Assembly (NCBI GenBank): GCA_003212275.1
Contig: QCQE01000004.1
Location: 3,238-67,237, forward strand
Direction of reading: 5' to 3'
Length of the DNA stretch: 64,000 nt
DNA from: Pelagibacteraceae bacterium AG-447-N18
Lineage (GTDB): Bacteria; Pseudomonadota; Alphaproteobacteria; Pelagibacterales; Pelagibacteraceae
Both the position numbers and the translations under genes were made by a program. Within the stretch, counting starts at the first letter, position 1; each line of letters starts with the position of its first letter. The notes beneath the pieces are model-generated. The model saw only the letters and a program-made list of their open reading frames with translations, did no database searches and was not told where the DNA came from. Shown one piece after another: positions 15,054 through 40,774 of the stretch.

Positions 15054-16427
15054 ATGAATTATATTAGTACAAGAAATAATCAGAAAAACTTTACTTTTAA
15101 AGATGTTTTCCTTAAAGGTTTAGCAGATGATGGAGGGCTATTTGTACCTAAATCAATTAAACCCTTTAAAGAGGAAGAATTAGATAATCTAAAAAATCTT
15201 AGTTACAATGATTTAGCGGCTGAAATAATTTATCCATTTATTGGAGATTTCATGTCTAAAAATGATCTAATCTCTTTAATTTCAAAATCATATTCAAATT
15301 TCAGATCCGACGACGTTGTTAAAATATCAGATCTAGGAGATTTAAAAGTATTAGAATTGTTTCACGGACCTACACTTGCTTTTAAAGATATCGCAATGCA
15401 ATTGATAGGTAATTTTTATGAATATCATTTAGGGCGTGATCAAAAAAAAATTAATATAATTGTTGCAACTTCAGGGGATACGGGTGCTGCTGCCATAGAC
15501 GCTTTAAAGGGAAAAAATAATTTAAATGTTTTTGTATTACACCCCAACAATAAAATTTCACCTGTGCAAAGAAGACTAATGACAATACATGAAGAGAGTA
15601 ATGTATTTAATATTGCGGTGGAGGGTAATTTTGACGATTGCCAAAATTTAGTAAAAGCAATGTTTAATGACGAAAAATTTTCTAAAGCAATCAATATGTC
15701 GGGTGTAAATTCAATTAATTGGGCAAGAATTATTGCTCAATCGGTGTATTATTTTTACGCTTATTTTAAAGTTGGAAACGGACAAACATTATCTTTTTCC
15801 GTTCCAACAGGAAACTTCGGGGATATTTACGCTGGCTATTTAGCAAAAAAACTAGGTCTACCAATTGATAGACTAATCGTAGCTACAAATAAAAATGACA
15901 TACTGCACAGAGCTATATCTGCTGGTGATTATAATCAAAAAAAAGTAGAGGAAACAAATACTCCAAGTATGGATATACAAATAGCAAGTAATTTCGAAAG
16001 ACTTTTATACGACGTGAAAGATTGCAACTCAGAAGTTACAAAGGATGTAATGGCTGAAATTAAAAATAATAATTATAAAATTGATAAAAGTGACTTAGAT
16101 AAAATTCAAAAAAATTTTATATCTGAAATGCTCGATGAAAACGAAACTGTTGAAATGATAAAAACCATCAATGATGAGCATCAGATGGTAGTTGACCCGC
16201 ATACTGCAGTGGGTATTGGTGCTGTGAGAAAATTAGGATTGGAAAAAAATTGTGTCGTATTATCAACTGCACACCCATGTAAATTTCCAAAAGCAATAAA
16301 AGATGCAATTTCAAAAACTGAAAATTTACCAGAAAGTCTTAAATATGTTAATGACAGAAAAGAAAAATTTCAACTTCTGTCAAATGATATTGAAAAAGTT
16401 AAAAAATACGTAATAAATTCGATATGA
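15054..16427 (+). CDS. thrC: Threonine synthase
   Basis: YISTRN N-terminus, PTLAFKD PLP-lysine motif, 457 aa. Confidence 0.93.
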   Translation: MNYISTRNNQKNFTFKDVFLKGLADDGGLFVPKSIKPFKEEELDNLKNLSYNDLAAEIIYPFIGDFMSKNDLISLISKSYSNFRSDDVVKISDLGDLKVLELFHGPTLAFKDIAMQLIGNFYEYHLGRDQKKINIIVATSGDTGAAAIDALKGKNNLNVFVLHPNNKISPVQRRLMTIHEESNVFNIAVEGNFDDCQNLVKAMFNDEKFSKAINMSGVNSINWARIIAQSVYYFYAYFKVGNGQTLSFSVPTGNFGDIYAGYLAKKLGLPIDRLIVATNKNDILHRAISAGDYNQKKVEETNTPSMDIQIASNFERLLYDVKDCNSEVTKDVMAEIKNNNYKIDKSDLDKIQKNFISEMLDENETVEMIKTINDEHQMVVDPHTAVGIGAVRKLGLEKNCVVLSTAHPCKFPKAIKDAISKTENLPESLKYVNDRKEKFQLLSNDIEKVKKYVINSI

Positions 16428-16912
16428 AACTTAAAATAAAAGATCAACTACCAGACACAGAGATTTTTCATTTTGTAGATGGAGAGCCTCAAAAAAGTAA
16501 ATTAAGAGAAATTATTGGGAATGGTAAAGTTGTCTTGTTTGGTCTACCTGGGGCATTTACATCAACTTGCTCCAAACTTCACTTACCAGGTTTTGTAGCA
16601 AATGCAGATAAAATCAAAGCTAAAGGAATAGAAAATATATTTTGTTTATCAGTAAATGATCCTTATGTGATGAATGGTTGGGGAGAAATAAATAATACTG
16701 GAGATAAAATTAAAATGTTATCTGATCCATATTTGTTATTTACTAAAGCAATTGGAGCAGAAGTTGATCGTAACGCAAAAGGTATGGGAATTAGATCAAA
16801 TCGTTACTTAATGGTGATTGAAAATTTCACAATTGTTAATATTTATGTTGAAAAAGAAACTAAGGAATGTGGTTTAACTTCAGCAGAAAATTTATTAATT
16901 AATCTAATCTAG
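16424..16912 (+). CDS. Peroxiredoxin (Prx5/atypical 2-Cys type)
   Basis: LPGAFTSTCS peroxidatic Cys motif; 162 aa. Confidence 0.88.
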   Translation: MKLKIKDQLPDTEIFHFVDGEPQKSKLREIIGNGKVVLFGLPGAFTSTCSKLHLPGFVANADKIKAKGIENIFCLSVNDPYVMNGWGEINNTGDKIKMLSDPYLLFTKAIGAEVDRNAKGMGIRSNRYLMVIENFTIVNIYVEKETKECGLTSAENLLINLI

Positions 16913-16914
16913 GT

Positions 16915-16940
16915 AGGGCAGTTCTGTTGCTAGGTGACCC
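16915..16940 (+). repeat. Island repeat copy 1 (degenerate boundary copy): GGGCAGTTCTGTTGCTAGGTGACCC
   Basis: Starts 3 nt after the peroxiredoxin stop and ends 2 nt before the stop of the 16943-17290 gene. It carries two 1-nt insertions and one C>T change relative to consensus. Confidence 0.75.
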
Positions 16941-16942
16941 GA

Positions 16943-17290
16943 TTATCTTTTTACACAAGGAAAAGTAATATATTCTAAATTAAGTTTTCTGTATGTTCCA
17001 TCGCTTTGTCTCTCATAGAAATTTTGATTTCTAAAAAAATTAAGAACCTTACCAATTTGACCTAGTCTCGTATCAATCCAACATCTACCGTTTTTATAAT
17101 CAGAAACTTTTTTATAGACTTTCTGTAAATTATAAAGATCACCTTTTTTGCCTACAGCGTCAACGTTTACAATTTCCATTACGAAACCCATATATTTTTT
17201 GTGACCACCTGTTATTTTGCCAGTCACATAATAATCAGCAAAAGCATTTGTAGAAAAAAATATAAGAATAATAAAAATTAGTTTTTTCAT
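16943..17290 (-). CDS. Secreted small protein (115 aa; signal peptide; two Cys; G-x-C-W-I motif)
   Basis: MKKLIFIILIFFSTNAFA signal peptide. I start at ATG 17290. The track's longer 16943..17389 version reads through repeat copy 2. It shares motifs with the 18464-18802 product. Confidence 0.7.
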   Translation of the reverse strand: MKKLIFIILIFFSTNAFADYYVTGKITGGHKKYMGFVMEIVNVDAVGKKGDLYNLQKVYKKVSDYKNGRCWIDTRLGQIGKVLNFFRNQNFYERQSDGTYRKLNLEYITFPCVKR

Positions 17291-17297
17291 AATTAAT

Positions 17298-17321
17298 GGG
17301 GCGTTTTGTTGCCAGGTGCCC
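17298..17321 (+). repeat. Island repeat copy 2 (type A): GGGGCGTTTTGTTGCCAGGTGCCC
   Basis: 23 of 24 positions match consensus. It lies 7 nt from ATG 17290 and 7 nt from the stop at 17329. Confidence 0.9.
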
Positions 17322-17328
17322 GAGGTAA

Positions 17329-17706
17329 CTAATATGGCGCAAATAAAATTGATACAAAAAGCGATCCAATCCAACTTAAAAAGACCCACTGAGATTTTAT
17401 TCCACCTAAATTATAAATTTTATTCATGGCAGATCCTCTTAAGTAGCAATACACTGGAACAAATATTGCGCCCCAAATTAAAGCGTTGTTTATTTTAATT
17501 TTTGCTTTATTCAGTTGTTGTTCGTCGTAATAAATTGTGCTTACATTTATAATTGTATATGCAATAAGCACGGGCCATAAAGTATCAGCACCAAACATGT
17601 TAATTAATAGTGGTTCTAAAAAAAGTGCTCCCAAGATTGGTACAAAAATTAAAAATACTGCATATCCATTATTTATTTTATTTAAGGGTACTTTTTTTGA
17701 TTTCAT
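17329..17706 (-). CDS. Small integral membrane protein (125 aa, about four TM)
   Basis: ORF bounded exactly by repeat copies 2 and 3. It has hydrophobic helices and no family I recognise. Confidence 0.65.
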   Translation of the reverse strand: MKSKKVPLNKINNGYAVFLIFVPILGALFLEPLLINMFGADTLWPVLIAYTIINVSTIYYDEQQLNKAKIKINNALIWGAIFVPVYCYLRGSAMNKIYNLGGIKSQWVFLSWIGSLFVSILFAPY

Positions 17707-17740
17707 AATTATACATAAACTATAATTATTAGAATTTAAA

Positions 17741-17762
17741 GGGGCGTTCTGTTGCCCGGCAC
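17741..17762 (+). repeat. Island repeat copy 3 (type B): GGGGCGTTCTGTTGCCCGGCAC
   Basis: The first 16 nt are identical to consensus. The distal part shares three substitutions with copy 5. Confidence 0.85.
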
Positions 17763-17801
17763 TAGATTAGAAAATAGCATATTTGCTTACTTATTAAAAC
17801 T

Positions 17802-17868
17802 ACTTCGTTGAAAACTTCGTTGAGAGATCTTCTTATTTTGTCCGGAGTTTGCCTTTTAACTTCGTTGA
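17802..17868 (+). promoter_or_regulatory. Three direct copies of ACTTCGTTGA upstream of the + strand cassette gene
   Basis: Copies at 17802-17811, 17814-17823 (12-nt period) and 17859-17868. The last copy ends 20 nt before ATG 17889, and each contains a TTGA(A/G)A element resembling a -35 box. Confidence 0.45.
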
Positions 17869-17888
17869 AAATTTATTAGAGTTAATTT

Positions 17889-18179
17889 ATGAAAAAAATT
17901 TTTAAAATATCCTTTTTAATTTTCTTTATATATTTTAACCCCACTCAAGTTAAATTTAGTCATGCTATTTCATTATCAGGTATTACAGATATATTTAAAG
18001 ACCCTCTTGAATTGTGTATGGACAGAGTTATAGCAATAGAAGGAAAATACGAGACGAGTTATGCTGCCAGAGTTTGTGCTGGATCAAATAAGGGAACAAA
18101 AAAATGTATGGATCGGATAATTGCACAAGAAGGAAAATATGAAGTTGGTTATGCAGCAAGAGTATGCAATGGAAACTAA
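17889..18179 (+). CDS. Secreted small protein (96 aa) with two tandem Cys-bounded modules (CMDR.IA.EGKYE..YAARVC)
   Basis: Signal peptide MKKIFKISFLIFFIYFNPTQVKFSHA. There is an internal 30-aa period (C43-C63, C73-C93). Repeat copy 4 plus a T-run immediately follows the stop. Confidence 0.7.
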   Translation: MKKIFKISFLIFFIYFNPTQVKFSHAISLSGITDIFKDPLELCMDRVIAIEGKYETSYAARVCAGSNKGTKKCMDRIIAQEGKYEVGYAARVCNGN

Positions 18180-18184
18180 ATTAG

Positions 18185-18208
18185 GGGGCGTTCTGTTGCC
18201 AGGTGCCC
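18185..18208 (+). repeat. Island repeat copy 4 (type A, consensus): GGGGCGTTCTGTTGCCAGGTGCCC
   Basis: Perfect consensus with an extra flanking G/C pair, followed by a T9 run. It sits between the stop at 18179 (+ gene) and the stop at 18209 (- gene). Confidence 0.92.
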
Positions 18209-18415
18209 CTATTTTTTTTTATTCTCAAACCAAACCGCAAGACCAACTATCAACCAAGTTAGAATTGACGTTATCACAGCAATTATGAGTATTGCCATAA
18301 ACATTGAAAAATCTTTTAAGAATTCTGGATAATATGTTTTATTGGATAATAAATACACAAACAAAAACCCAACTAAAAGAGGTTGTATTATTATTACATA
18401 AATTTTTTTTATCAT
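18209..18415 (-). CDS. Small membrane protein (68 aa, two TM)
   Basis: ORF exactly fills the space between repeat copies 4 and 5. Its stop codon abuts copy 4. Confidence 0.6.
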   Translation of the reverse strand: MIKKIYVIIIQPLLVGFLFVYLLSNKTYYPEFLKDFSMFMAILIIAVITSILTWLIVGLAVWFENKKK

Positions 18416-18425
18416 AATTTTTTTA

Positions 18426-18447
18426 GGGGCGTTCTGTTGCCCGGCAA
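18426..18447 (+). repeat. Island repeat copy 5 (type B): GGGGCGTTCTGTTGCCCGGCAA
   Basis: The first 21 nt are identical to copy 3. It lies 10 nt from ATG 18415. Confidence 0.85.
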
Positions 18448-18463
18448 TTAACTCTACAAAAGT

Positions 18464-18802
18464 TTATCTTCCTCGACACCCAAAAGTTGCAAAGTATGTT
18501 TTAAATTTTTTCTTTCTTTCTTTTGATATCCAACATTGTCCCTTACTAGAGTCATAATATATTCTTTTTACTTCAAATGAATCAATTTCCTCTCCATTTG
18601 CATAAACTTTTAGATTTTGACCCAATGATACTGAACTTCGATTAGTCTTTACGTTTTTTGTGTACATTGTACAAATAAATCCTGTAAATCCACAATCGTT
18701 ATATCCTGCATCTTTACCACTCCATTTAGCAGAATTAACATAACTTCCGGCAAATGCGGGAGAATGAATTAATAAAAAAATAAATAAAAAAAATCTTATC
18801 AT
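18464..18802 (-). CDS. Secreted small protein (112 aa; signal peptide; four Cys; G-x-C-W-I motif)
   Basis: MIRFFLFIFLLIHSPAFA signal peptide. KGQCWIS and C-terminal FGCRGR resemble NGRCWID and FPCVKR of the 16943-17290 product. Confidence 0.7.
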   Translation of the reverse strand: MIRFFLFIFLLIHSPAFAGSYVNSAKWSGKDAGYNDCGFTGFICTMYTKNVKTNRSSVSLGQNLKVYANGEEIDSFEVKRIYYDSSKGQCWISKERKKKFKTYFATFGCRGR

Positions 18803-18811
18803 AACTTAAAA

Positions 18812-18835
18812 GGGGCGTTCTGTTGCCAGGTGCCC
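18812..18835 (+). repeat. Island repeat copy 6 (type A, consensus)
   Basis: All 24 nt are identical to copy 4. It lies 9 nt from ATG 18802. Confidence 0.92.
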
Positions 18836-18896
18836 TCGACTTTATTTGATTATAGCCAATTATTTTTCCAAAAAAACTCTAATTTTTACGTACTAG

Positions 18897-18931
18897 GACG
18901 AGTAAATGACGAGTGAAAATCAACTCGTTTT
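18897..18931 (+). promoter_or_regulatory. GACGAGT-N4-GACGAGT plus inverted ACTCGT (hairpin plus TTTT) upstream of the lipoprotein mini-operon
   Basis: GACGAGT at 18897-18903 and 18908-18914. ACGAGT (18909-14) is complementary to ACTCGT (18923-28) across an 8-nt loop. A homologous element lies at 19228-19251. Confidence 0.4.
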
Positions 18932-18959
18932 AATTTATAAGATCTGTTAAAATTACGTA

Positions 18960-19103
18960 ATGAAAATTTTAAAGATTTTTATACTATTTTCTATATCATT
19001 AACTTTTGCTGGTTGTGATTTAGCATACTTCGACTGCAAAAGAGAGATGAAGAAAGTAACAGACTCCGCTACAGCAGCTCGTGTTTGTAAAAATAAATCA
19101 TAG
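18960..19103 (+). CDS. 47-aa lipoprotein with one AARVC-type Cys module
   Basis: My own translation is MKILKIFILFSISLTFAGCDLAYFDCKREMKKVTDSATAARVCKNKS, with lipobox LTFAG|C. The AARVC motif is shared with the 17889-18179 product. It is not in the ORF track. Confidence 0.6.
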   Translation: MKILKIFILFSISLTFAGCDLAYFDCKREMKKVTDSATAARVCKNKS

Positions 19104-19106
19104 AGA

Positions 19107-19220
19107 ATGGGAGCAATTAGAGATCTAGTAGCTGATATCTTAGGCGTTTCACCAGATGTCGCAACTTTCATAATTGGTGTTCCGTTTTTTTTACTTGCAA
19201 TATATCTTATGAAAAAATAA
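19107..19220 (+). CDS. 37-aa single-TM protein
   Basis: My own translation is MGAIRDLVADILGVSPDVATFIIGVPFFLLAIYLMKK. It starts 3 nt after the lipoprotein stop and is followed by a hairpin and T-run. Confidence 0.45.
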   Translation: MGAIRDLVADILGVSPDVATFIIGVPFFLLAIYLMKK

Positions 19221-19227
19221 TTTTTGT

Positions 19228-19262
19228 GACGAGTACAGGACGAGTCACTCGGTTGTATTTTT
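19228..19262 (+). terminator. Candidate intrinsic terminator / second GACGAGT-N4-GACGAGT element
   Basis: GACGAGT at 19228-34 and 19239-45. CGAGT (19230-34) is complementary to ACTCG (19247-51), followed by GTTGTATTTTT. Confidence 0.4.
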
Positions 19263-19302
19263 AAATTTACGTTGATAATCAAAACTTATTTTAAAATATG
19301 AA

Positions 19303-19326
19303 GGGGCGTTCTGTTGCCAGGTGTCC
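19303..19326 (+). repeat. Island repeat copy 7 (type A): GGGGCGTTCTGTTGCCAGGTGTCC
   Basis: 23 of 24 positions match consensus (C>T). It lies 19 nt before the stop at 19346. Confidence 0.9.
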
Positions 19327-19345
19327 TTAACTTTTCTTTTTAAGT

Positions 19346-19702
19346 TCAACCGAACGCTAGTATTAATAAAGTGGAACCCAAAATTATTGATCCAAATAAA
19401 GCAAAATAAAACTCTTTTACAAAAAATTTTTTAAATTTAGTTTTTATTCCTATTGCTAGAATAGCACCCATAAAGGTTGCTATGAAATTTCCAAAGGAAT
19501 AAATTAATCCATCACTAAGACCAGTATTACCATCAAGATTTTTCATTAAAACTGCATTTAGAATAATAAATACAATGCTTATAAAGATTAAATTTTGTTT
19601 CGTAAGATTTTTTTTTAGATACTTGTTTTTACCAACAGCATAAATTCCAATTAAACCAAAAATAGAATACAGAACAATACTTATTAAAGAATCCAGAATC
19701 AT
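19346..19702 (-). CDS. Small integral membrane protein (118 aa, about four TM)
   Basis: ORF lies between repeat copies 7 and 8 and is hydrophobic throughout. I recognise no family. Confidence 0.65.
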   Translation of the reverse strand: MILDSLISIVLYSIFGLIGIYAVGKNKYLKKNLTKQNLIFISIVFIILNAVLMKNLDGNTGLSDGLIYSFGNFIATFMGAILAIGIKTKFKKFFVKEFYFALFGSIILGSTLLILAFG

Positions 19703-19737
19703 AAACGCATAATATACTATTTAAAAATAAAAAAGTA

Positions 19738-19763
19738 AGGGATGTTCTTTTGCCAGATGTCTC
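19738..19763 (+). repeat. Island repeat copy 8 (degenerate boundary copy): AGGGATGTTCTTTTGCCAGATGTCTC
   Basis: Ends 2 nt before the rnhA stop (19766). It has a 1-nt insertion and several transitions, but GTTCT.TTGCCAG.TG is retained. Confidence 0.65.
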
Positions 19764-19765
19764 AA

Positions 19766-20188
19766 CTATAAATTGGCAGCATCTCTAGCAAGTAAATCTA
19801 CCTCATTATTTAATTGATCAGTTGAATGGGCTTTTACCCAGTTCCAACTTATTTCAAATTCATTATTCAGAAGATCTAATTCTGTCCAAAGCTCTTTATT
19901 CCTAACTTCTTTTTTATTTGCAGCTCTCCATCCATTTTTTTTCCAATTGTGTATCCACTCTGTTATTCCAGACTTTACATATTTAGAATCAGTAAAAATT
20001 TGAACTTTACTTCCTTTTGGAATTTTTTTAAGCGCCTCTATAGGTGCTAATAATTCCATCTGATTATTTGTAGCATCTTTTTTACTTCCTTTAATTTCAG
20101 TTTTTTTCCCTTCATTTAATATTATTGCTGCCCAACCCCCTTTGCCTGGATTACCAAGACATGAACCATCGGTATAAATTTTAATCAT
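19766..20188 (-). CDS. rnhA: Ribonuclease HI
   Basis: YTDGSCLGNPGKGGW start and DSKYV...W.KV.AH motifs; 140 aa. Confidence 0.93.
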   Translation of the reverse strand: MIKIYTDGSCLGNPGKGGWAAIILNEGKKTEIKGSKKDATNNQMELLAPIEALKKIPKGSKVQIFTDSKYVKSGITEWIHNWKKNGWRAANKKEVRNKELWTELDLLNNEFEISWNWVKAHSTDQLNNEVDLLARDAANL

Positions 20189-21153: not shown

Positions 21154-22098
21154 TTAATTTAATTTTTTTGGAACACGAAAAACAACGTTTTCCTTTATAA
21201 TTTCTACTTCTTCTATAGTGACAGTAAATTTATTTTTCAATTCTTTAATGAAATTTTCTACAAGTATTTCAGGGGCAGACGCACCAGATGAAATTCCGAT
21301 TATATTTGAATTTTCAATTAAGTTAAATGGAATTTCACTTTGTGAGTGGATCAGTATTGAGTTTTCACACCCCGATTTTTTAGCAACTTCAACAAGTCTT
21401 ACTGAGTTAGATGAATTTCGACTACCAATTATGAAAAATAGATCACACTTTTTTGCAATATTTTTAACAGCCATTTGTCTATTAGTTGTCGCGTAACAAA
21501 TATCTTCTTTCGCAGGCTCTCTAATATTTGAAAATTTTTTCTTAAGTATTGATATTATTTCTTTTGTATCATCTACTGATAGGGTTGTTTGAGTAACATA
21601 GGCAATCTTTTCAAAATTTTTTGGATCATAATTATTTGCTTCATCCTCATTTTGGATAAGGTCGATAGATCCTTTAGGTAGTTGCCCCATTGTTCCAATT
21701 ACCTCGGGATGATTTTCATGTCCTATTAAGATCAAATGGTATCCAGCCTTATGAAGATTTTCAGCCTCTCTATGAACTTTAGAAACCAAAGGACATGTTG
21801 CGTCAACATAAGTCATATTATAGTTTTTTGCATCTTGTGGAATTTTTTTTGGAACACCATGTGCAGAGAAAATAACTGGTCTTGTTTTGTCTTCAATTTC
21901 TTCCAGCTCTTCCACAAATATTGCACCTTTATTCCTTAGGTCATCAACAACAAATTTATTGTGTACTATTTCATGTCTTACGTAAACTGGAGAACCATAC
22001 TTTTGAATTGATTTTTCAACAATTTCAATTGCTCGTTCAACGCCCGCGCAAAATCCCCTTGGAGCAGATAATAATATTTTAAGTTCTTTGTTTTTCAT
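21154..22098 (-). CDS. ispH: 4-hydroxy-3-methylbut-2-enyl diphosphate reductase
   Basis: PRGFCAGVERAI, SAHGV and ATCPLV Fe-S Cys motifs. Confidence 0.95.
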   Translation of the reverse strand: MKNKELKILLSAPRGFCAGVERAIEIVEKSIQKYGSPVYVRHEIVHNKFVVDDLRNKGAIFVEELEEIEDKTRPVIFSAHGVPKKIPQDAKNYNMTYVDATCPLVSKVHREAENLHKAGYHLILIGHENHPEVIGTMGQLPKGSIDLIQNEDEANNYDPKNFEKIAYVTQTTLSVDDTKEIISILKKKFSNIREPAKEDICYATTNRQMAVKNIAKKCDLFFIIGSRNSSNSVRLVEVAKKSGCENSILIHSQSEIPFNLIENSNIIGISSGASAPEILVENFIKELKNKFTVTIEEVEIIKENVVFRVPKKLN

Positions 22099-23023
22099 TT
22101 TTATCTAAAAGATACTCAAGTAATATATGTGGAAATGTTAAAGACGCCAAACCTATAAAAATGACTTTAATAATTGAGTTATCAAAATCATATTTCAAAT
22201 TGAGCAAACTAATACCAACTAAACAAATAATAGCAGTTAATATCGTAAGTGGCATAGCTTTTTTAATAAAAATTAATAAACCATTTTTAATATTACTATT
22301 ATCTAATTCGTAAATTAATGTAATGCTATGTCTTACAGAATGTAAAAAGCAAAAATAAGCAGTAAATGCTATTAAAGGAGAGAGATAATAATTTAAAATC
22401 AATATAGAAAAATAATCAAAAAAAATAGAAAAATTCTTAAAAGTAAATTTTTTAATAAACAAAATAATACTTGAAATAGAACTTAAGATTATCCCTATAT
22501 CTATTAATCTATTACTCTCAATAAAGCTTAAACTTAAATAAAAATTTTCATTATCAATTAATAATAATTTAAATATTACTAAAGTTTCATCAAAATGAAA
22601 ATATAATGGTGCCAAAATAACAAGAGATCCTTTAAGAAAATACAGTATCCCCAAAAAGTGTGAGTTATAGTCATGCAAAAATTGTGTATCCTCTTTGCCA
22701 AAATGATACGAGGCAACAATTAGAAATATTATTAGCAAGATAGATGGTATTAAAACCCAAAGTGTTACAACCACTACAGCTATTGAGATATAGGAAATAT
22801 AAAATAGAGTTATATTTTCAATTTTAAAAATCTTTAGAAGCTTCCCACCTTTGACATGATCCAAAGACCCATGTGATACACCAATAATTAAAATCAAAAA
22901 TAAGCAAAATAATGGTGAAAATATAAAGTTACTAAATTTAAATAGTATTATAGAAAAAATGTTACAGAATAAAAAAAAAATAAAAGAATGATTAAGATTT
23001 ATTTTTTTTAGATTCATACTCAT
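22079..23023 (-). CDS. blh: Beta-carotene 15,15'-dioxygenase (Brp/Blh family)
   Basis: Polytopic membrane protein with conserved His residues (GVSHGSLDH, SYHFGKED, FLHSVRH). It sits directly downstream of crtY-crtB-crtI. Confidence 0.85.
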   Translation of the reverse strand: MSMNLKKINLNHSFIFFLFCNIFSIILFKFSNFIFSPLFCLFLILIIGVSHGSLDHVKGGKLLKIFKIENITLFYISYISIAVVVVTLWVLIPSILLIIFLIVASYHFGKEDTQFLHDYNSHFLGILYFLKGSLVILAPLYFHFDETLVIFKLLLIDNENFYLSLSFIESNRLIDIGIILSSISSIILFIKKFTFKNFSIFFDYFSILILNYYLSPLIAFTAYFCFLHSVRHSITLIYELDNSNIKNGLLIFIKKAMPLTILTAIICLVGISLLNLKYDFDNSIIKVIFIGLASLTFPHILLEYLLDKNEKQRT

Positions 23024-23029
23024 TTAGGT

Positions 23030-24100
23030 TTAATCAAATAAAGCTTTGATAAAAATCCATTTTGGCATTTTTAAAATTATAGTCAAATCTTGAAGAAAAT
23101 TACTCTTATTTGATAGAAATTTGATAATTGTTTTAGGTGAACTTTGAAACATTTTAAAAAAAATTTCTGACATTTTTTTTGGATGTTTTTCAAGAACACG
23201 TAAAAATATTTCATCCAAAAATTGGTACTTTTTACTGATTTCAAATTTTTTAGTATGATGAATATTTTCAATATTTTCTCTAATAAATTTACTATGTTCT
23301 TGTATATTCAAAAAAGTATATCCTGTACTTAATCTCGTCATACCACCAGCAGTTCCAATATTAATTTTATTTTTTTCATTTTTGAATGAGGGATAAAAAA
23401 GTGGAATTGCACCTATTTCTTTATAAGTAATTTTATAATTTTTTAAATTTAATTTCTTTTCAATATATTCTTTAATTTGTTGATCATAATCTTTTTGAGA
23501 GTCATCATTCATTTTTGAAATCCAAGTACTTTCAATCAATGCCTTTCTTTTCGAGAAGGGAAGTGTGTAAAAAAAATGGACACTTTCCCTTTGATCACAA
23601 TCAAAATCCATGAGATTAAAAATATTTTCATCGAAATAATTATTTTCTGTCTCTATTTCAACCCCGCAAAAGTGTTGCCATAAGTTTCTAAAGTCTTTTT
23701 TGATAGAGGGAACGCTATTGAATACAAATGAATTTTTTATGTTGATGTCTTTGAGTTCCTTTAAAAAAAAGATATTTTTATTTTTCTTTAATGAATTATT
23801 TATTTTTTCATAAAACAAACCACTATCGATGCTTTGGTATGGATAATTTTCGCACTCAAGAAAATTCATTTTGTTTGGTGCGTTAATTGAAAAATTTTTC
23901 CAATTTTTTATGACACAATCATCAAAATTATGTTCAGATACCTTCCAAAAAGACCAGGTCTTATCTCTTTTATATTCATCTCGAGGCTCGATTATTGCTA
24001 AGGTTTTATTTTCTAATTTATTATGGATCTCTAATTCATAAGCTAGAGATAAACCAGCACAACCACCTCCAATAATTATGTAATCAAATTCTTTCATCAA
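23030..24100 (-). CDS. crtY: Lycopene beta-cyclase
   Basis: DYIIIGGGCAGLSLA FAD motif; 356 aa; crt cluster context. Confidence 0.88.
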   Translation of the reverse strand: MMKEFDYIIIGGGCAGLSLAYELEIHNKLENKTLAIIEPRDEYKRDKTWSFWKVSEHNFDDCVIKNWKNFSINAPNKMNFLECENYPYQSIDSGLFYEKINNSLKKNKNIFFLKELKDINIKNSFVFNSVPSIKKDFRNLWQHFCGVEIETENNYFDENIFNLMDFDCDQRESVHFFYTLPFSKRKALIESTWISKMNDDSQKDYDQQIKEYIEKKLNLKNYKITYKEIGAIPLFYPSFKNEKNKINIGTAGGMTRLSTGYTFLNIQEHSKFIRENIENIHHTKKFEISKKYQFLDEIFLRVLEKHPKKMSEIFFKMFQSSPKTIIKFLSNKSNFLQDLTIILKMPKWIFIKALFD

Positions 24101-24935
24101 GATTAATTTCTTTATTAATCAATAAATGATCATGTTCGATTTGATCATCCTTTTTATTTAGTAAAGAAAGTATAATTAGATCATAAATTGATAAAATCGT
24201 CTCCAAAACTTTTTCAAGGTTTGAAACGTAAATTTTTCCAGATTTACTATAATTTTCAAAGGTTTTCTTTTTCAAAATTTTATATCCAATTTTCCTGTAT
24301 ATTCTTCTGGCAACTAAAATACTGAATCTAAAGCTAAGTGGAATTTCTCTTATCGAATAAAATGAATTTTTATAAAATGTATCTGCAAGTTTAATAGTTG
24401 AATTAATTTCCTCAAAATTTCCATTTATATAAGATCTATTTTTTTTTGAGTCCTCTATCACATCTCTTGATATATTGGTGAGTTGCATTGCTATACCAAG
24501 ATCGATTGCAGATTTAAGAGATTGTTTTTTGCTCACTTTTAAAATTTTTGCCATCATCAGTCCGACTGTTCCTGCTACTCTATAACAATAGATTAAAAGA
24601 TCTTTTCGAGTATCTATTTTTACATTTCGTCTGATGTCTGACTCTATCCCGTCAAATAAATCATAAATTATTTCCAGAGAAATATTGAATTCATTAATAA
24701 TATTCCACATATTTTCAATAACAGGATCCTCAAAATTTTTTTGTTTAAAATCACTTACAAATTTTTGGAATTTTATTTTTTTTATTTCTATTTCATCTTC
24801 GTCATCTGCAATATTGTCTACAACTCTGCAAAAATCGTATAAATAAGAACAATTTTTATAGGTTCTTTTTGGTAAAAAAAAACCAGCCCAATTAAATGAT
24901 TTTGCGTAAATAGATAAATAATTTTTAGAGGACAT
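24084..24935 (-). CDS. crtB: Phytoene synthase
   Basis: Squalene/phytoene synthase motifs (FCRVVDNIADD; YCYRVAGTVG; NISRDV.ED). Confidence 0.92.
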   Translation of the reverse strand: MSSKNYLSIYAKSFNWAGFFLPKRTYKNCSYLYDFCRVVDNIADDEDEIEIKKIKFQKFVSDFKQKNFEDPVIENMWNIINEFNISLEIIYDLFDGIESDIRRNVKIDTRKDLLIYCYRVAGTVGLMMAKILKVSKKQSLKSAIDLGIAMQLTNISRDVIEDSKKNRSYINGNFEEINSTIKLADTFYKNSFYSIREIPLSFRFSILVARRIYRKIGYKILKKKTFENYSKSGKIYVSNLEKVLETILSIYDLIILSLLNKKDDQIEHDHLLINKEINLDERI

Positions 24936-33245: not shown

Positions 33246-34384
33246 AAAAAATAGCCATTATTGGAGCTGGTATTTCAGGATTATTTATTGCTAATTTGTT
33301 CAAGAAAAACTCAGATTATCAAGTGGCAATTTATGAGAAAAGTAATTCGATTAATCTTGAGGAAGGTTATGGAATTCAATTATCCGTTAATAGTGTGAAG
33401 CTTTTAAATGAAATTGAATTTAATAAATTTGAAAATGCAAGAAAGTTTAATCCAAAAAAGATTATTTTTTTTTCATCTAAAAACTTCAAAAAGATATGTG
33501 ATTTGAATATCTCTGATTTTAATTCAGAGAATTGTCAGTACACTACTTTGAAAAGATCTGATTTAATAAATTTTTTGAAAAAGGATATAGAAAATTTAAT
33601 TAAATTTAATCATAATGTCTCGAGTATAAATAAAGAAAATCAGAAAATTCAACTTACTTTTGAGAACAATGAAATTTTTGAATGTGATTATTTAATCATT
33701 TCAGATGGAGTTTTTTCAAAAAGTAGAAGTTTGATTTCCAACAATAAAAGTCAACCAAAATACAACAACACACTAGCCATCAGAGGAAAGATAACAAATT
33801 TTTCTGAAATCGATAATGAAAATATTTCATTATTTTTAGGCTCTGATTTTCATCAGGTAATTTATCCAGTAAATCAAAATGGAGACTTAAATTTTATAGC
33901 AATTATGAAGTATGAACTTACTTTAGAACAACAAAAAAATTATTCTTTATTCAAAGAAAATTCCTTCATAAGAAAAGTTTTAGAAAAGGTTCCAAAAGAA
34001 AATAAAGAATTTTTTGATAAAATTCAGGAATTAAAAATATTCCCAGTATTTGTTAGCAAGGACTTTTTTAAAACAAATAATGATAACATTAATTTTATAG
34101 GTGATGCTTTTTTTGCTTTTCCACCTTCATTTGCTCAAGGGGCATCTCAATCCATAGAGGGTGCCTATGAATTATTTAAAAGTATTGAAAATAACTTAGA
34201 AGGGGATTTCTTTAAGAATAGAGTTAATAAAACTAAAATGGTTAATAAAAGATCTAAACTAAATCAATTCGCATTTCATTTGTCTAATCCTGTGGCTGTT
34301 TTTTTTAGAAATATTTTTTTGAAAAAATTTATTAAAAACAAAAAGTTTTTAGATTCTTATTTAGGTAAAATTTATGATAATTAA
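33242..34384 (+). CDS. FAD-dependent monooxygenase (salicylate hydroxylase/UbiH-like)
   Basis: IIGAGISGL dinucleotide motif and GDAFFAFPPSFAQGASQSIEGA motif. Confidence 0.75.
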   Translation: MKKIAIIGAGISGLFIANLFKKNSDYQVAIYEKSNSINLEEGYGIQLSVNSVKLLNEIEFNKFENARKFNPKKIIFFSSKNFKKICDLNISDFNSENCQYTTLKRSDLINFLKKDIENLIKFNHNVSSINKENQKIQLTFENNEIFECDYLIISDGVFSKSRSLISNNKSQPKYNNTLAIRGKITNFSEIDNENISLFLGSDFHQVIYPVNQNGDLNFIAIMKYELTLEQQKNYSLFKENSFIRKVLEKVPKENKEFFDKIQELKIFPVFVSKDFFKTNNDNINFIGDAFFAFPPSFAQGASQSIEGAYELFKSIENNLEGDFFKNRVNKTKMVNKRSKLNQFAFHLSNPVAVFFRNIFLKKFIKNKKFLDSYLGKIYDN

Positions 34385-35451
34385 TTTTTTGAAATTAATC
34401 TTTGTCTTAAATTATCTATAGGCACTATTTGCCCATTAAGATTATAATGCCAATAAGTCCAGCCATTACAACTTTCTGCTCCTAATATTGATGCAGCTAC
34501 CTTGTGAATAGAGCCCTCTTTTTTGGCATGTTTTATACTTCCATCAGCCATAATTTTTGCACTGATTTTCTTTTTATTATCAAAAATAGTAGTGCCTGGC
34601 TTAATTATTCCTAATTCAACCAATGACCCAAAAGGTACTCTTGGCTTAGATCTACCATTTTGCAAAGTATCTAAATAATCATCTTCTATAGGTTTTGTAT
34701 TTTTTAGTCGTTGTTCAGCTGCCTTATGATAGGTTTTTTCTTTTTCAATTCCGTAATAATTTCTACCCAATTTTTTTGCAACCGCTGCTGTTGTTCCTGA
34801 TCCTAAAAAAGGATCTAAAACTAAATCATTTTTATTTGAGGTTGCTAATAAAATTCTGTGAAGTAGAGCCTCAGGTTTTTGAGTAGAATGCACTTTTTTA
34901 CCATTCTTTTTAAGTCTTTCAGAACCATTACAAATCGGCAACTCCCAGTTCGATCTCATTTGAAGATCATCATTTAAACATTTTAAAGATTGATAATTAA
35001 AAGTGTATTTTGATTTTTCTGATTTTGATGCCCAAATCAACGTTTCATGTGCATTAGTAAAACGTGTCCCTCTGAAATTTGGCATGGGATTTTTTTTATT
35101 CCAGATGACATCATTTAAAATCCAAAAACCTAAATTTTGAATAGCGGTGCCAACTCTAAAAATGTTATGGTAACTGCCAATCACCCAAATAGCACCATTT
35201 TTTTTCAAAATTCTTTTACATTCAGTTAACCACAAGTAGGTAAATTCATCATACTTTTTAAAATTTTTAAATTGATCCCATTTATCATTGACTGCATTTA
35301 CCTTAGACCTATCGGGTCTTATAAGCTCATTTCTTAATTGTAAGTTGTAAGGAGGGTCAGCAAAAATTAAATCAAAAGTCTCACTAGGGATTTTTTTAAG
35401 TTCCCTTAAACTATCTCCATTTATTAATTTATTTTTAAAGTCCAAATTCAT
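34381..35451 (-). CDS. ccrM: N6-adenine DNA methyltransferase, CcrM-like (beta class)
   Basis: DLIFADPPYN catalytic motif near the N-terminus, VLDPFLGSGTT SAM motif, and a C-terminal extension as in CcrM. I start at ATG 35451. Confidence 0.88.
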   Translation of the reverse strand: MNLDFKNKLINGDSLRELKKIPSETFDLIFADPPYNLQLRNELIRPDRSKVNAVNDKWDQFKNFKKYDEFTYLWLTECKRILKKNGAIWVIGSYHNIFRVGTAIQNLGFWILNDVIWNKKNPMPNFRGTRFTNAHETLIWASKSEKSKYTFNYQSLKCLNDDLQMRSNWELPICNGSERLKKNGKKVHSTQKPEALLHRILLATSNKNDLVLDPFLGSGTTAAVAKKLGRNYYGIEKEKTYHKAAEQRLKNTKPIEDDYLDTLQNGRSKPRVPFGSLVELGIIKPGTTIFDNKKKISAKIMADGSIKHAKKEGSIHKVAASILGAESCNGWTYWHYNLNGQIVPIDNLRQRLISKN

Positions 35452-35570
35452 TTTATAAAAATAAATTAGACTCCAAAAAGATTCTTGGGTCAACCTAGGA
35501 TTGAATTATTTGGATTCCATTTGTATGATGGTGGTTCACAACAACTACATCTGGTGTTTCTACGTGAAAC

Positions 35571-39422: not shown

Positions 39423-39496
39423 TGGGGCGTAGCCAAGCGGTAAGGCACGGGTTTTTGGTACCTGCATCCTAGGTTCGAATCCTAGCGCCCCAGCCA
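39423..39496 (+). tRNA. tRNA-Gln (anticodon UUG), CCA encoded
   Basis: 74-nt cloverleaf TGGGGCG/CGCCCCA acceptor, D-arm GCCAAGCGGTAAGGC, anticodon loop TTTTGGT, T-arm TAGGTTCGAATCCTA. It resembles E. coli tRNA-Gln as I remember it. Confidence 0.92.
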
Positions 39497-39499
39497 AGT

Positions 39500-40774
39500 A
39501 TGAAAAATTTTTTAGATACAATTTTTTTTAGATCAAATAATTTAAATTATATAAGTCAAACTATTCGAGATTTAACAAAAAATACTCCAGCAAATAAAAT
39601 ATTTAAAGCCATAAATTCTTATTCATCAGATAGTGAAGTAAGATTTGTAGGAGGTTGCATAAGAAAAATCATTAATAAAGAAATAGTAAATGATATTGAT
39701 ATGGCTACAAATCTTGATCCTCAAAAGGTTTGTGAAGTTTTGAAAGAAAATAAAATTGATTTTTACGAAACTGGTATTGAACATGGAACAATTACAGCAC
39801 TTATAGAAGGGTACAAATTTGAGATTACCTCATTGAGAGAAGATATTTTAACAGATGGAAGACATGCAAAAGTGAAATTTTCAAAAAATTGGAAAGAGGA
39901 TGCATTAAGAAGGGATTTTACCATCAATTCCATATACGCGGATGAAGATGGAAACTTGTTCGATCCTTTTGAGGGTAAAAAAGACTTAGAAAACGGTTTC
40001 GTAAATTTTATAGGAGACGCTGATAAAAGAATTAAAGAAGATTATTTGAGAATTTTAAGATATTTAAGATTTTTCGCTCATTACTCAAAGCATCCGCATA
40101 ATCCAGAATTAATCAGAAAACTTAAAATTAATATCGGTGGTATCTCAAAATTATCTAAAGAGAGACTATTAGATGAGTTAAAAAAAATAACTCACTTAGA
40201 AATATTAGAAAAATTAGCTGATGATAAATTGAGCTCAGAATTATTTTTAATTGTTTTTCCTGAATTAAATAATTTAAAAACCTTTTCAAAATTAAACTCA
40301 AAAAAAAAACAAATAATTAATAAGGCTGATTTTGTCTTTCTATTATCTTTAATGATTATTGATGAGACAGATAATGCGGATTATTTTATGTACAAATTTA
40401 ATATTTCTAAAAAAGATAAAAAAAGAATTAAAATTATTGATAATTTTTTTAAGGAAAAAATTGGACCAAAAACTTTTAGAGAGGAAAACTTTAATGGTAT
40501 TTTTTATTATAATGGAAAACAAGCTGTAACTGATATTCTCAATTATTATTTAATAAAATCAAAAAAAAATTCTGAAAATATTCAAAGATTAATTGATTTC
40601 TACAAAGATAAAACAATACCAAAAATGCCTGTGGGTGCAGAATTTTTAATGGAAAAATTCAATATTCCTGAGGGTAAACAATTGGGTGTAAAATTAAAAA
40701 TAATTGAAGAAGAATGGGTGAAAAATAATTTTCAAATTTCAGATAAACAAGTAAGTCAAATTGTTAACAATTAG
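39500..40774 (+). CDS. cca: tRNA nucleotidyltransferase (CCA-adding enzyme) / poly(A) polymerase family
   Basis: VGGCIRK...NDIDMAT nucleotidyltransferase motif and RRDFTINS motif. Confidence 0.88.
   Translation: MKNFLDTIFFRSNNLNYISQTIRDLTKNTPANKIFKAINSYSSDSEVRFVGGCIRKIINKEIVNDIDMATNLDPQKVCEVLKENKIDFYETGIEHGTITALIEGYKFEITSLREDILTDGRHAKVKFSKNWKEDALRRDFTINSIYADEDGNLFDPFEGKKDLENGFVNFIGDADKRIKEDYLRILRYLRFFAHYSKHPHNPELIRKLKINIGGISKLSKERLLDELKKITHLEILEKLADDKLSSELFLIVFPELNNLKTFSKLNSKKKQIINKADFVFLLSLMIIDETDNADYFMYKFNISKKDKKRIKIIDNFFKEKIGPKTFREENFNGIFYYNGKQAVTDILNYYLIKSKKNSENIQRLIDFYKDKTIPKMPVGAEFLMEKFNIPEGKQLGVKLKIIEEEWVKNNFQISDKQVSQIVNN

Follow-up and report, generated by a model that had tools for sequence, protein, structure and literature searches.

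Integration by tyrosine integrases at the 3' ends of transfer RNA (tRNA) and transfer-messenger RNA (tmRNA) genes, with tandem accretion of successive elements, is a classical phenomenon (Williams, 2002; Islander/TIGER, PMC4383910). Among streamlined planktonic bacteria, the islands and tycheposons of Prochlorococcus lie at six tRNA genes and the tmRNA gene (bioRxiv 10.1101/2020.12.28.424599), and an island of 'Ca. Methylopumilus' contains recurring 20-nt tRNA-Lys ends (PMC10872708). For SAR11, four islands with partial tRNA repeats and one tmRNA-linked island have been mentioned in passing (PMC11796062), the clade being otherwise described as without canonical mobile elements and the turnover of its flexible genes as unresolved (PMC11796062; PMC2217521). 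The present study examines a 64,000-nt stretch of the SAR11 genome Pelagibacteraceae bacterium AG-447-N18 (contig QCQE01000004.1, positions 3,238 to 67,237 of the forward strand; hereafter the window), in which an array of very small genes separated by a short repeat lies between the peroxiredoxin gene prx and the RNase H gene rnhA. Judged from sequence comparison, the repeat is almost certainly a reverse-complement copy of the final 25 nt of ssrA, the two-piece tmRNA gene of SAR11, and the array is probably an additive cassette island at an ectopic tmRNA-type attachment (att) site, built by a recombinase acting in trans.

Elements without a recombinase of their own are familiar from other bacteria. 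The cis-mobilisable elements (CIMEs) of the integrative and conjugative elements (ICEs) of Streptococcus and the mobilisable genomic islands (MGIs) mobilised by SXT are integrase-less, att-flanked elements mobilised in trans, and the pdif modules of Acinetobacter and the Xer-dependent integrative mobile elements (IMEX) are one-or-two-gene modules with sites of about 28 nt, served by a housekeeping recombinase encoded elsewhere. With CIMEs and MGIs the SAR11 array would share att-flanked DNA without recombination genes, a recombinase located elsewhere and accretion at one att site, but CIMEs and MGIs exceed it 10-100-fold in size and are linked to a known ICE integrase; to our knowledge, SAR11 has no ICEs. 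The mini-modules of one or two genes bounded by short recombination sites recall pdif modules and IMEX, whereas the SAR11 copies are all direct and chromosomal and pdif sites alternate in orientation and are plasmid-borne; compared by eye with the dif consensus, the SAR11 site is also unlike dif with its 11-6-11 XerC/XerD arms.

Eight matches to the degenerate 16-mer GGGRYGTTCTKTTGCY, with up to two mismatches allowed, were found in the window, every one on the + strand, starting at 16916, 17298, 17741, 18185, 18426, 18812, 19303 and 19739. The expectation by chance was 0.22, none of 100 shuffles reached eight, and the remaining 61 kb of the window held no copy. The array spans 16916-19763 with repeat-to-repeat spacings of 382, 443, 444, 241, 386, 491 and 436 nt, and cuts the gap between prx and rnhA into seven units, each made up of a single open reading frame (ORF) or of a two-ORF pair; the - strand carries five of these units and the + strand two. 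The distance between an ORF end and a repeat is 0-19 nt, and the start codons of - strand genes lie 7-35 nt from the repeat upstream. A 24-nt form of the repeat is exact at 18185 and 18812 (copies 4 and 6) and has one mismatch at 17298 and 19303 (copies 2 and 7). Beyond prx lies thrC, and beyond rnhA lie thrB and ispH. The original prediction, made from the letters of the window alone, had described exactly this arrangement: eight same-strand repeats, four of them near-identical, bounding seven one-ORF or two-ORF units that reach to within 0-19 nt of a repeat, with five genes on the - strand and core genes on both sides. Motif counts, shuffles, spacings and the ORF list bear it out, as do Pfam matches (prx and rnhA) and the neighbouring genes for the flanks, and the outermost copies are, as it stated, the most decayed, being degenerate and no longer able to fold. 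Its statement that sequence flanking the copies is unrelated is only partly right: copies 3 and 5 share the variant arm GCCCGGCA, and the flanks of copies 3, 6 and 7 fall into conserved arm families that recur in other genomes. The features from prx to rnhA are listed below, with repeat copies numbered O1 to O8 and given the strand of the tmRNA sequence, and with cassettes called sense when their ORF runs in that orientation.

16424..16912, + strand: prx, a Redoxin/AhpC-TSA peroxiredoxin (Pfam Redoxin, 6.4e-26), the distal-side core gene, with its stop 3 nt from O1
16916..16940, - strand: repeat O1, GGGCAGTTCTGTTGCTAGGTGACCC on the + strand; decayed prx-proximal att copy, alpha_tmRNA match at E 0.02 (sub-threshold), no fold
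16943..17290, - strand: cassette 1 gene, 115 aa; minimal sense cassette, no Pfam family
17298..17321, - strand: repeat O2, a 23/24 match to the tmRNA 3' end
17329..17706, - strand: cassette 2 gene, 125 aa, hydrophobic and membrane-like by sequence reading; minimal sense cassette
17741..17756, - strand: repeat O3, 16-nt core intact, followed by the variant arm CGGCACTAG; 5' stem half lost
17757..17888, + strand: cassette 3 arm/leader, conserved over about 130 nt, with ACTTCGTTGA boxes at 17802-17811, 17814-17823 and 17859-17868
17889..18179, + strand: cassette 3 gene, 96 aa; antisense cassette without a right-hand arm, with a 38% identical homologue in the related locus L048
18185..18209, - strand: repeat O4, perfect 25-mer; hairpin GGGGC-AC-CUG-GCAA-CAG-AAC-GCCCC, -11.8 kcal/mol
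18209..18415, - strand: cassette 4 gene, 68 aa, hydrophobic and membrane-like by sequence reading; minimal sense cassette
18426..18441, - strand: repeat O5, core intact with the variant arm CGGCAATT
18464..18802, - strand: cassette 5 gene, 112 aa, signal peptide predicted by reading; present in other contigs with different neighbours
18812..18835, - strand: repeat O6, perfect 24-mer
18836..18959, + strand: cassette 6 left arm, with GACGAGT boxes at 18897-18903 and 18908-18914 and an inverted ACTCGT at 18923-18928; resembles the left arms of L041, L024 and L064
18960..19220, + strand: cassette 6 cargo, two mini-ORFs of 47 aa (lipoprotein-like N-terminus by reading) and 37 aa
19221..19302, + strand: cassette 6 right arm, with GACGAGT boxes at 19228-19234 and 19239-19245, then the conserved GGTTGTATT-TTTAAATTTACGTTGATAAT...GAA arm
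19303..19326, - strand: repeat O7, a 23/24 match
19346..19702, - strand: cassette 7 gene, 118 aa, hydrophobic and membrane-like by sequence reading; minimal sense cassette
19739..19763, - strand: repeat O8, GGGATGTTCTTTTGCCAGATGTCTC on the + strand; decayed anchor copy, 2 nt from the rnhA stop, no fold
19766..20188, - strand: rnhA, RNase H (Pfam RNase_H, 4.1e-46), a core gene in the place held by ssrA at the primary site

None of the window cassette proteins has a Pfam family above threshold, and coding status is supported by homology for cassette 5 and, weakly, for cassette 3. The cassette 5 protein has metagenomic homologues at 65-97% identity, so its ORF is a real gene; the cassette 1 protein is weakly similar to it (pairwise E 5e-4) and, from a reading of its N-terminus, presumably has a signal peptide. 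The cassette 3 gene contains an internal tandem duplication of 69 nt (18015-18083 / 18105-18173, 71% identity), from which its protein carries a repeated CMDR(V/I)IA.EGKYE..YAARVC module. A foreign origin of the cassettes was considered and rejected because the GC content of the island (0.27-0.32) equals that of the flanks, making the cassettes SAR11-like.

At gathering threshold, Rfam recognised no family on the repeat and no complete tmRNA gene in the window, and the identity of the repeat emerged only from related loci and a relaxed search. In 10 related loci (related loci are designated by L numbers), alpha_tmRNA matches of 195-235 bits end exactly at ...GGGGCACCUGGCAACAGAACGCCCC, while the relaxed search of the island gave sub-threshold alpha_tmRNA matches on the - strand at seven of the eight copies, scoring 15-27 bits (RF01849, gathering threshold 50 bits) and covering the 3' end only. 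The full 25-mer (CAACAGAACGCCCC) forms, in either orientation, a hairpin of 5 bp and 3 bp with a GCAA (GNRA) loop at -11.8 kcal/mol; copies 3 and 5 retain only its 3' 16 nt, having lost the 5' half of the stem. By reading, the core is composed of the half-sites GGGGCGTTC and GGGGCACCT, inverted with respect to each other and separated by the 7-bp centre TGTTGCC. Across sites, 134 distinct left arms start abruptly at the first G of the core, forming a razor-sharp left boundary, and on the right, where 49 distinct arms were counted, similarity to ssrA fades gradually over positions 15-45, many right arms retaining 35-45 nt of tmRNA-like sequence. One family of right arms carries an inverted core copy 20-28 nt away (GTTCTGTT...AACAGAA(T/A)ATAA; L022:3918-3975, L018:4768-4825, L012:5311-5365, L064:7891-7950 and two sites in L073), a possible second half-site or hairpin.

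The distribution of the motif was followed in two sets of loci. A search with GGGGCGTTYTGTTGCC in one genome per species returned at least 120 loci, 89 of them low-GC Pelagibacterales contigs, and in most of these SAR11 loci the 16-mer runs on into conserved (tmRNA) sequence. Among the matches listed, ssrA is present in 69 of the 89, and about 22 of the 69 hold one to three extra copies, co-oriented on the 3' side of ssrA, the sole exceptions being three matches with three mismatches. Mismatches to the 25-mer rise with rank from ssrA (0.9, 4.0, 7.3 and 10.5; Spearman rho 0.69). Most loci without ssrA are distal parts of the ssrA island or the thrC/prx-rnhA junction. Third docking sites were considered and rejected, most of the remaining loci being distal parts of the ssrA island that share its flanking genes; L012, L048, L063, L068, L088 and L093 remain unclassified as to docking site. 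In 80 metagenome loci collected by way of RnhA and thus without regard to the motif, the junction DNA (28 kb) contained 19 sense copies and one antisense copy, and 326 kb outside the junctions contained two weak matches at chance level. By these counts the motif is neither genome-wide nor locus-specific and marks two docking sites, one at the 3' end of ssrA and the other 2 nt after the rnhA stop codon.

This distribution answers two suggestions of the original prediction. The novel, locus-specific site it envisaged is instead, with near certainty, the 25-nt end of tmRNA, a classical integration target with its primary arrays at ssrA, and the scattered copies expected of a generic repeat were not seen in 326 kb of flanking core DNA, apart from the two matches at chance level. 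The alternative it had offered, a REP-like family (repetitive extragenic palindrome), finds little room: a family of the REP type mobilised by a RAYT transposase, or of the type of miniature inverted-repeat transposable elements, spreading by transposition, could account for a short, GC-rich, imperfect palindrome in AT-rich intergenic DNA, but the copies keep a single orientation and essentially two genomic positions, their sequence equals the end of the tmRNA gene, and neither the cassettes nor the scanned window ORFs yielded a transposase or RAYT-like gene. We regard such a family as very improbable.

Alleles at the rnhA junction differ as an accretion site would lead one to expect. In tmRNA orientation the array begins 2 nt past the rnhA stop codon. 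Among the junctions that could be resolved, 40 are empty, the prx or thrC stop lying 1-58 nt from that of rnhA, and most of these have no motif or a decayed one; an anchor copy was scored in four of the 40, with at most two mismatches in three (L163, L150 and L151). Empty junctions with a single copy were read in L163, L150, L151 and L137, and L142 reads alike, its far side not being assembled. Their single copy consists of the rnhA-side half of O8 and the prx-side half of O1 (...GAACTGCCCTA-CTAGATTAG-prx), which is the hybrid predicted by insertion into one resident site. The left half of O1 (GGGCAGTTCTG plus the prx flank) matches the single-copy junctions of L150, L151 and L137, and a perfect copy stands at the position of O8 in L102, L061, L142 and L163. 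Occupied alleles carry 1-7 cassettes and differ in number and content, from one cassette in L102 to seven in the window; L215 has a 4.7-kb array with a homologue of window cassette 5 and nuclease-like genes. Comparison across relatives thus revealed the variable, repeat-bounded units and single-copy empty junctions that the original prediction had suggested looking for, but the constant bounding by the repeat that it had named as support was not seen throughout: 12 of the 25 occupied junctions have recognisable copies and the other 13 have none.

The junction varies in further ways. Occupied junctions without the motif (L138, L146, L162, L170, L173, L179, L185, L187, L190, L191, L201, L204, L207 and L211) may mark the convergent rnhA junction as a general insertion hot spot, or their old scars may have decayed beyond recognition. 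The peroxiredoxin flank is itself lineage-variable, prx being missing in many SAR11 lineages (L146, L157-L161, L165-L168 and others), in which rnhA and thrC are immediate convergent neighbours. In L056, L058, L179, L186 and L195 the rnhA stop is followed at once by a small hydrophobic ORF (MQYFFAPVIVLIVF...), and the motif, if present, comes after that ORF.

Movement of a cassette between the two docking sites is clearest in a pair of loci. A cassette of L022 (single-amplified genome AG-365-P20) lies between ssrA and a tRNA-Leu gene, and its counterpart in L102 between rnhA and prx; the two are about 98% identical over about 640 nt, and homology stops inside the motif at both ends. On one side it continues through ...GGGGCGTTCTGTTGCCAGGTGCCCCAA, beyond which stands the body of ssrA in one locus and rnhA in the other; at the opposite end the cassette arm TCCG.C.CAA abuts the resident flank plus GGGC(G/A)GTTCTGTTG. 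Comparison of 165 sites yielded five further flank-swap pairs, in which the same cassette end meets, at the motif, an ssrA body in one member of the pair and other DNA in its partner. Cassette 5 was found in further contexts (L215-L225), flanked on either side by the motif in L215, L216, L218 and L219; in L215, L216 and the window, homology starts at ACAGAACGCCCC, about 10 nt before the ATG, and the upstream sequences are three unrelated neighbours. The original prediction of a cassette-accretion locus with crossovers in the repeat is therefore upheld, the shared sequence at other loci having its breakpoints inside the motif, and the repeat acts, with near certainty, as an att site. Two candidate pairs were set aside. 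The cassette shared by L119 and L073 has one boundary at a decayed motif and the other at no recognisable copy, and was not used as evidence, and a whole cassette shared by L041 and L172 was rejected, only an arm of about 55 nt and the core being common, which points to a conserved arm family.

Homologous recombination alone could in principle produce such exchanges, if the 25-mer together with tmRNA-like or arm sequence of up to about 130 nt served as portable homology through which RecA circularises, integrates and swaps cassettes in a very large recombinogenic population. High rates of recombination have been reported in SAR11 (PMC2217521), which suits this account, as do the tmRNA-like stretches of 35-45 nt in many right arms, the arms of about 55 nt common to armed cassettes and the failure to find a recombinase in the cassettes or the scanned window ORFs. 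Several junctions, however, share only 12-14 nt of identity with their target (GGGGCGTTCTGT(TG) in the case of ssrA, e.g. at the left junction of L022/L102). RecA-dependent exchange needs roughly 20-30 nt, so these identities are too short for RecA and weaken the case for it. Breakpoints moreover coincide with the core even where neighbouring cassettes offer no homology, and the left boundary of the core is abrupt. We consider RecA acting alone an unlikely explanation and lean, with modest confidence, towards a dedicated recombinase.

The same repeat could alternatively have been retained for its RNA, the tmRNA 3' hairpin being reused and selected as a terminator, stability or processing element whose position at cassette borders is secondary. 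The stable fold of the full 25-mer in either orientation, its position 0-22 nt past the stop codon in 13 of 20 sense cassettes, and the perfect single copies that divergent lineages carry in empty junctions, where rnhA and thrC converge, are all compatible with such a role. Yet copies lack a T tract; an intrinsic (Rho-independent) terminator was rejected because, despite the hairpin of full copies, none of the eight was called by a terminator scan. Sense start codons follow a copy by only 7-35 nt, and termination there would leave no promoter. Copies 3 and 5 have kept the 3' 16 nt without the 5' stem half, O1 and O8 are unfolded, no copy lies behind any other gene in the other 61 kb of the window, which has 59 ORFs of at least 150 aa in all, and 326 kb of core DNA gave only two weak matches. 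Selection on the RNA also leaves the shared cassettes with motif breakpoints unexplained, and as the primary explanation it is quite improbable; a secondary RNA role for the repeat is conceivable.

The cassettes themselves come in two designs. Across loci, 67 were delimited, of 124-4157 bp (median 617 bp), their ORFs being antisense in 62 cases and sense in 29, with cargo families that include GSDH, trypsin-like peptidases, HNH/MrcB/DpnI-like nucleases, a GT2 glycosyltransferase, an epimerase, DUF2784 and DUF805. Sense cassettes, five of the seven in the window, are bare ORFs (median 468 bp), the core lying 7-35 nt before the ATG in 12 of 20. Antisense cassettes are longer (median 1036 bp) and have conserved arms around unrelated cargo, of about 55 nt and of about 45-130 nt. 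The left arm of about 130 nt at 17757-17888 of the window recurs in L119 (88%), L064, L061, L018 and L096, and the right arm of about 55 nt at 19251-19302 (GGTTGTATT-TTTAAATTTACGTTGATAAT...) in L172, L041, L024, L007, L015 and L119; both ends of cassette 6 are common to cassettes of L041 and L024, their interiors differing.

Within the arms stand direct-repeat boxes of 7-11 nt, two to three upstream and one to three downstream of the cargo ORF, with a word that is specific to the cassette and the same at both of its ends. Words recorded were GACGAGT, GTACATAG, ACTTCGTTGA, ATCCCGTACA and TTCCGAA, and also CTTCGTTGA. In 12 of the 67 cassettes one GC-containing 7-mer is present two or more times at the left end and one or more times at the right, as against 2.4% of mismatched left/right pairs, and the conserved left arm of L018 has all three of its boxes altered in concert. 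Box sites are the following.

window 17802-17868, 18897-18928 and 19228-19245: boxes of cassettes 3 and 6
L022:3960-4560: boxes of the L022 locus
L018:4830-4900: boxes of the L018 locus

Joined through the core, the two arms would form a site of about 200 bp with two to three repeats per side, 45-70 nt from the core, a layout that we interpret as resembling the arm-type site geometry known from lambda-type attP.

Small units, most of them with a single ORF, that are set in an array between copies of a structured repeat and have no integrase linked to them invite comparison with a true integron or with a CALIN, an attC cluster lacking an integrase. The site is nevertheless unlike attC, being a tmRNA-derived sequence of 25 nt with a stem of 5 + 3 bp and a GNRA loop; attC sites are imperfect palindromes of 57-141 nt with R''/L''/L'/R' boxes. 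No intI, attI or Pc is present and ORF orientation is mixed, so that membership of this class has, in our view, next to no chance of being right. The analogy with an integron lacking its integrase, drawn in the original prediction, is fair for the five minimal ORF-plus-hairpin cassettes but does not extend to the defining features of integrons and CALINs, the likeness being functional only.

Searches for the enzyme covered cassettes, window and phages. Pfam analysis of 71 ORFs from the 67 cassettes, including all 20 ORFs of 232-515 aa, revealed no Phage_integrase, other recombinase or transposase, and the earlier claim that the window has no recombinase holds for the 30 ORFs of 238-424 aa that were scanned with Pfam, all of housekeeping families. 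The motif occurs in eight low-GC IMG/VR contigs (L122-L125, L128, L129, L131 and L134), which were rejected as carriers of an attP with integrase: six scanned with Rfam carry complete two-piece alpha_tmRNA genes, and two others have the same tmRNA-like extension. The tmRNA published for Melnitz-like phages and pelagimyophages is consistent with these contigs (PMC9004378). L123, a phage-like contig, also has ribonucleotide reductase and structural genes. No blastn match to the 3' 72 nt of ssrA was found among INPHARED phages. Temperate pelagiphages are known to use tRNA genes as integration sites (PMC8477408).

We propose that the 3' terminal hairpin segment of tmRNA, antisense on the + strand of the window, serves SAR11 as a recombination (att) core, of which small integrase-less cassettes of 0.1-4 kb would each carry one copy. 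Cassettes would circularise and integrate by a Campbell-type single crossover within the core, duplicating it, so that every cassette comes to be bounded by direct copies. The primary docking site is the 3' end of ssrA, and the second is the stand-alone 25-mer after rnhA, where the seven cassettes seen here have gathered. New cassettes would supply fresh cores while the outermost hybrid copies decay under AT-biased mutation. A site-specific recombinase supplied in trans, most likely one of the tyrosine type, would carry out the crossover, its gene lying at another place in the genome or in a phage. In armed cassettes, the conserved arms with their repeated boxes may be attP-type accessory sites.

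Several observations weigh against this proposal. The catalysis is something we infer, no recombinase having been found in the cassettes or the scanned window ORFs, and neither IMG/VR nor INPHARED yielded a phage or viral contig with the motif as an attP adjoining an integrase. A single arm-binding protein serving all cassettes is hard to reconcile with box words that change from one cassette to another, and a lambda-type arm-binding integrase cannot explain the minimal sense cassettes, which have no arms; these call for two recombinase types or for a simple Cre/Xer/IntI-like enzyme. Selection for the hairpin could also explain the perfect single copies in empty junctions of divergent lineages. 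Finally, given the 13 occupied junctions whose inserted genes have no recognisable motif, either insertion at rnhA does not always depend on the motif or scars decay.

Elsewhere in the window, a retinal/carotenoid gene set (22082-24935, - strand; blh-type BCD dioxygenase, lycopene cyclase and phytoene synthase) adjoins ispH and is ordinary for proteorhodopsin-bearing SAR11. At 35448-35517 (- strand) an Rfam match to the small RNA bablM (79 bits) overlaps the 5' end of a CcrM-like N6/N4 DNA methylase ORF (34384-35493), and a tRNA gene (39423-39493, + strand) lies immediately 5' of a gene of the poly(A) polymerase / CCA-adding family (39500-40771).

Set beside the described systems, the SAR11 arrays resemble tRNA and tmRNA islands in their direct repeats, which equal a 3' fragment of the target gene and are all direct in the window, in the intact gene at one end of the ssrA arrays of other genomes, in the displaced fragment at the far end, with successive insertions pushing older ones outward, and in the empty-site, single-att alleles of relatives (L163, L142, L150, L151 and L137). 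They differ in that no unit contains an integrase, that the units are tiny (median 0.6 kb), and that the window array adjoins rnhA at a stand-alone 25-mer with no tmRNA gene in the window. Their ecology and logic, with cargo at a tRNA- or tmRNA-type site between partial gene copies, are those of the additive islands of other streamlined plankton, in most of which integrase-bearing elements are likewise rare or absent; tycheposons, however, encode a tyrosine recombinase and replication genes, whereas SAR11 cassettes carry cargo only. Small, mostly single-ORF units with one structured site at the 3' end of the ORF, arrays of unrelated cargo, a crossover inside the site, so that each integrated cassette holds parts of two sites, and cassettes shared across arrays in varying order are features in common with integron cassettes, from which the SAR11 units are set apart by a tmRNA-derived site of 25 nt, the lack of IntI, attI and Pc, at least two chromosomal docking sites, and the many cassettes oriented against the array with arms of their own. 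Integration at tRNA and tmRNA ends and additive islands are thus already known; in the SAR11 literature searched, no description was found of tmRNA-end arrays, of the detached docking site at rnhA, or of the two designs, minimal ORF-plus-hairpin cassettes and armed cassettes with co-varying boxes.

Among marine heterotrophs SAR11 is the most abundant, and the locus provides a sequence-defined handle on its gene swapping, with a site of 25 nt, a pair of docking positions, alleles both empty and occupied, and cassettes found at both positions. Gain and loss of cassettes become directly measurable in single-amplified genomes as well as in long-read metagenomes, and the site offers bait for finding the recombinase. 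A tmRNA-type att site can, moreover, exist detached from the tmRNA gene and still gather cargo, and island finders that demand an adjacent tRNA or tmRNA gene would miss arrays like the one at rnhA. Tentatively, and as a possibility that we hold to be rather doubtful, SAR11 might maintain clade-wide an integron-like cassette economy with a recombinase unlinked to the arrays, in which the tmRNA-derived hairpin of 25 nt would be the cassette site and bare co-oriented as well as armed cassettes would both shuttle between ssrA and rnhA, at least two sites. If this were true, the variability of the box words would suggest a partner that is programmable or has multiple specificities, and the integron-like economy would be a main route by which small genes come and go in a bacterium considered to lack mobile elements.

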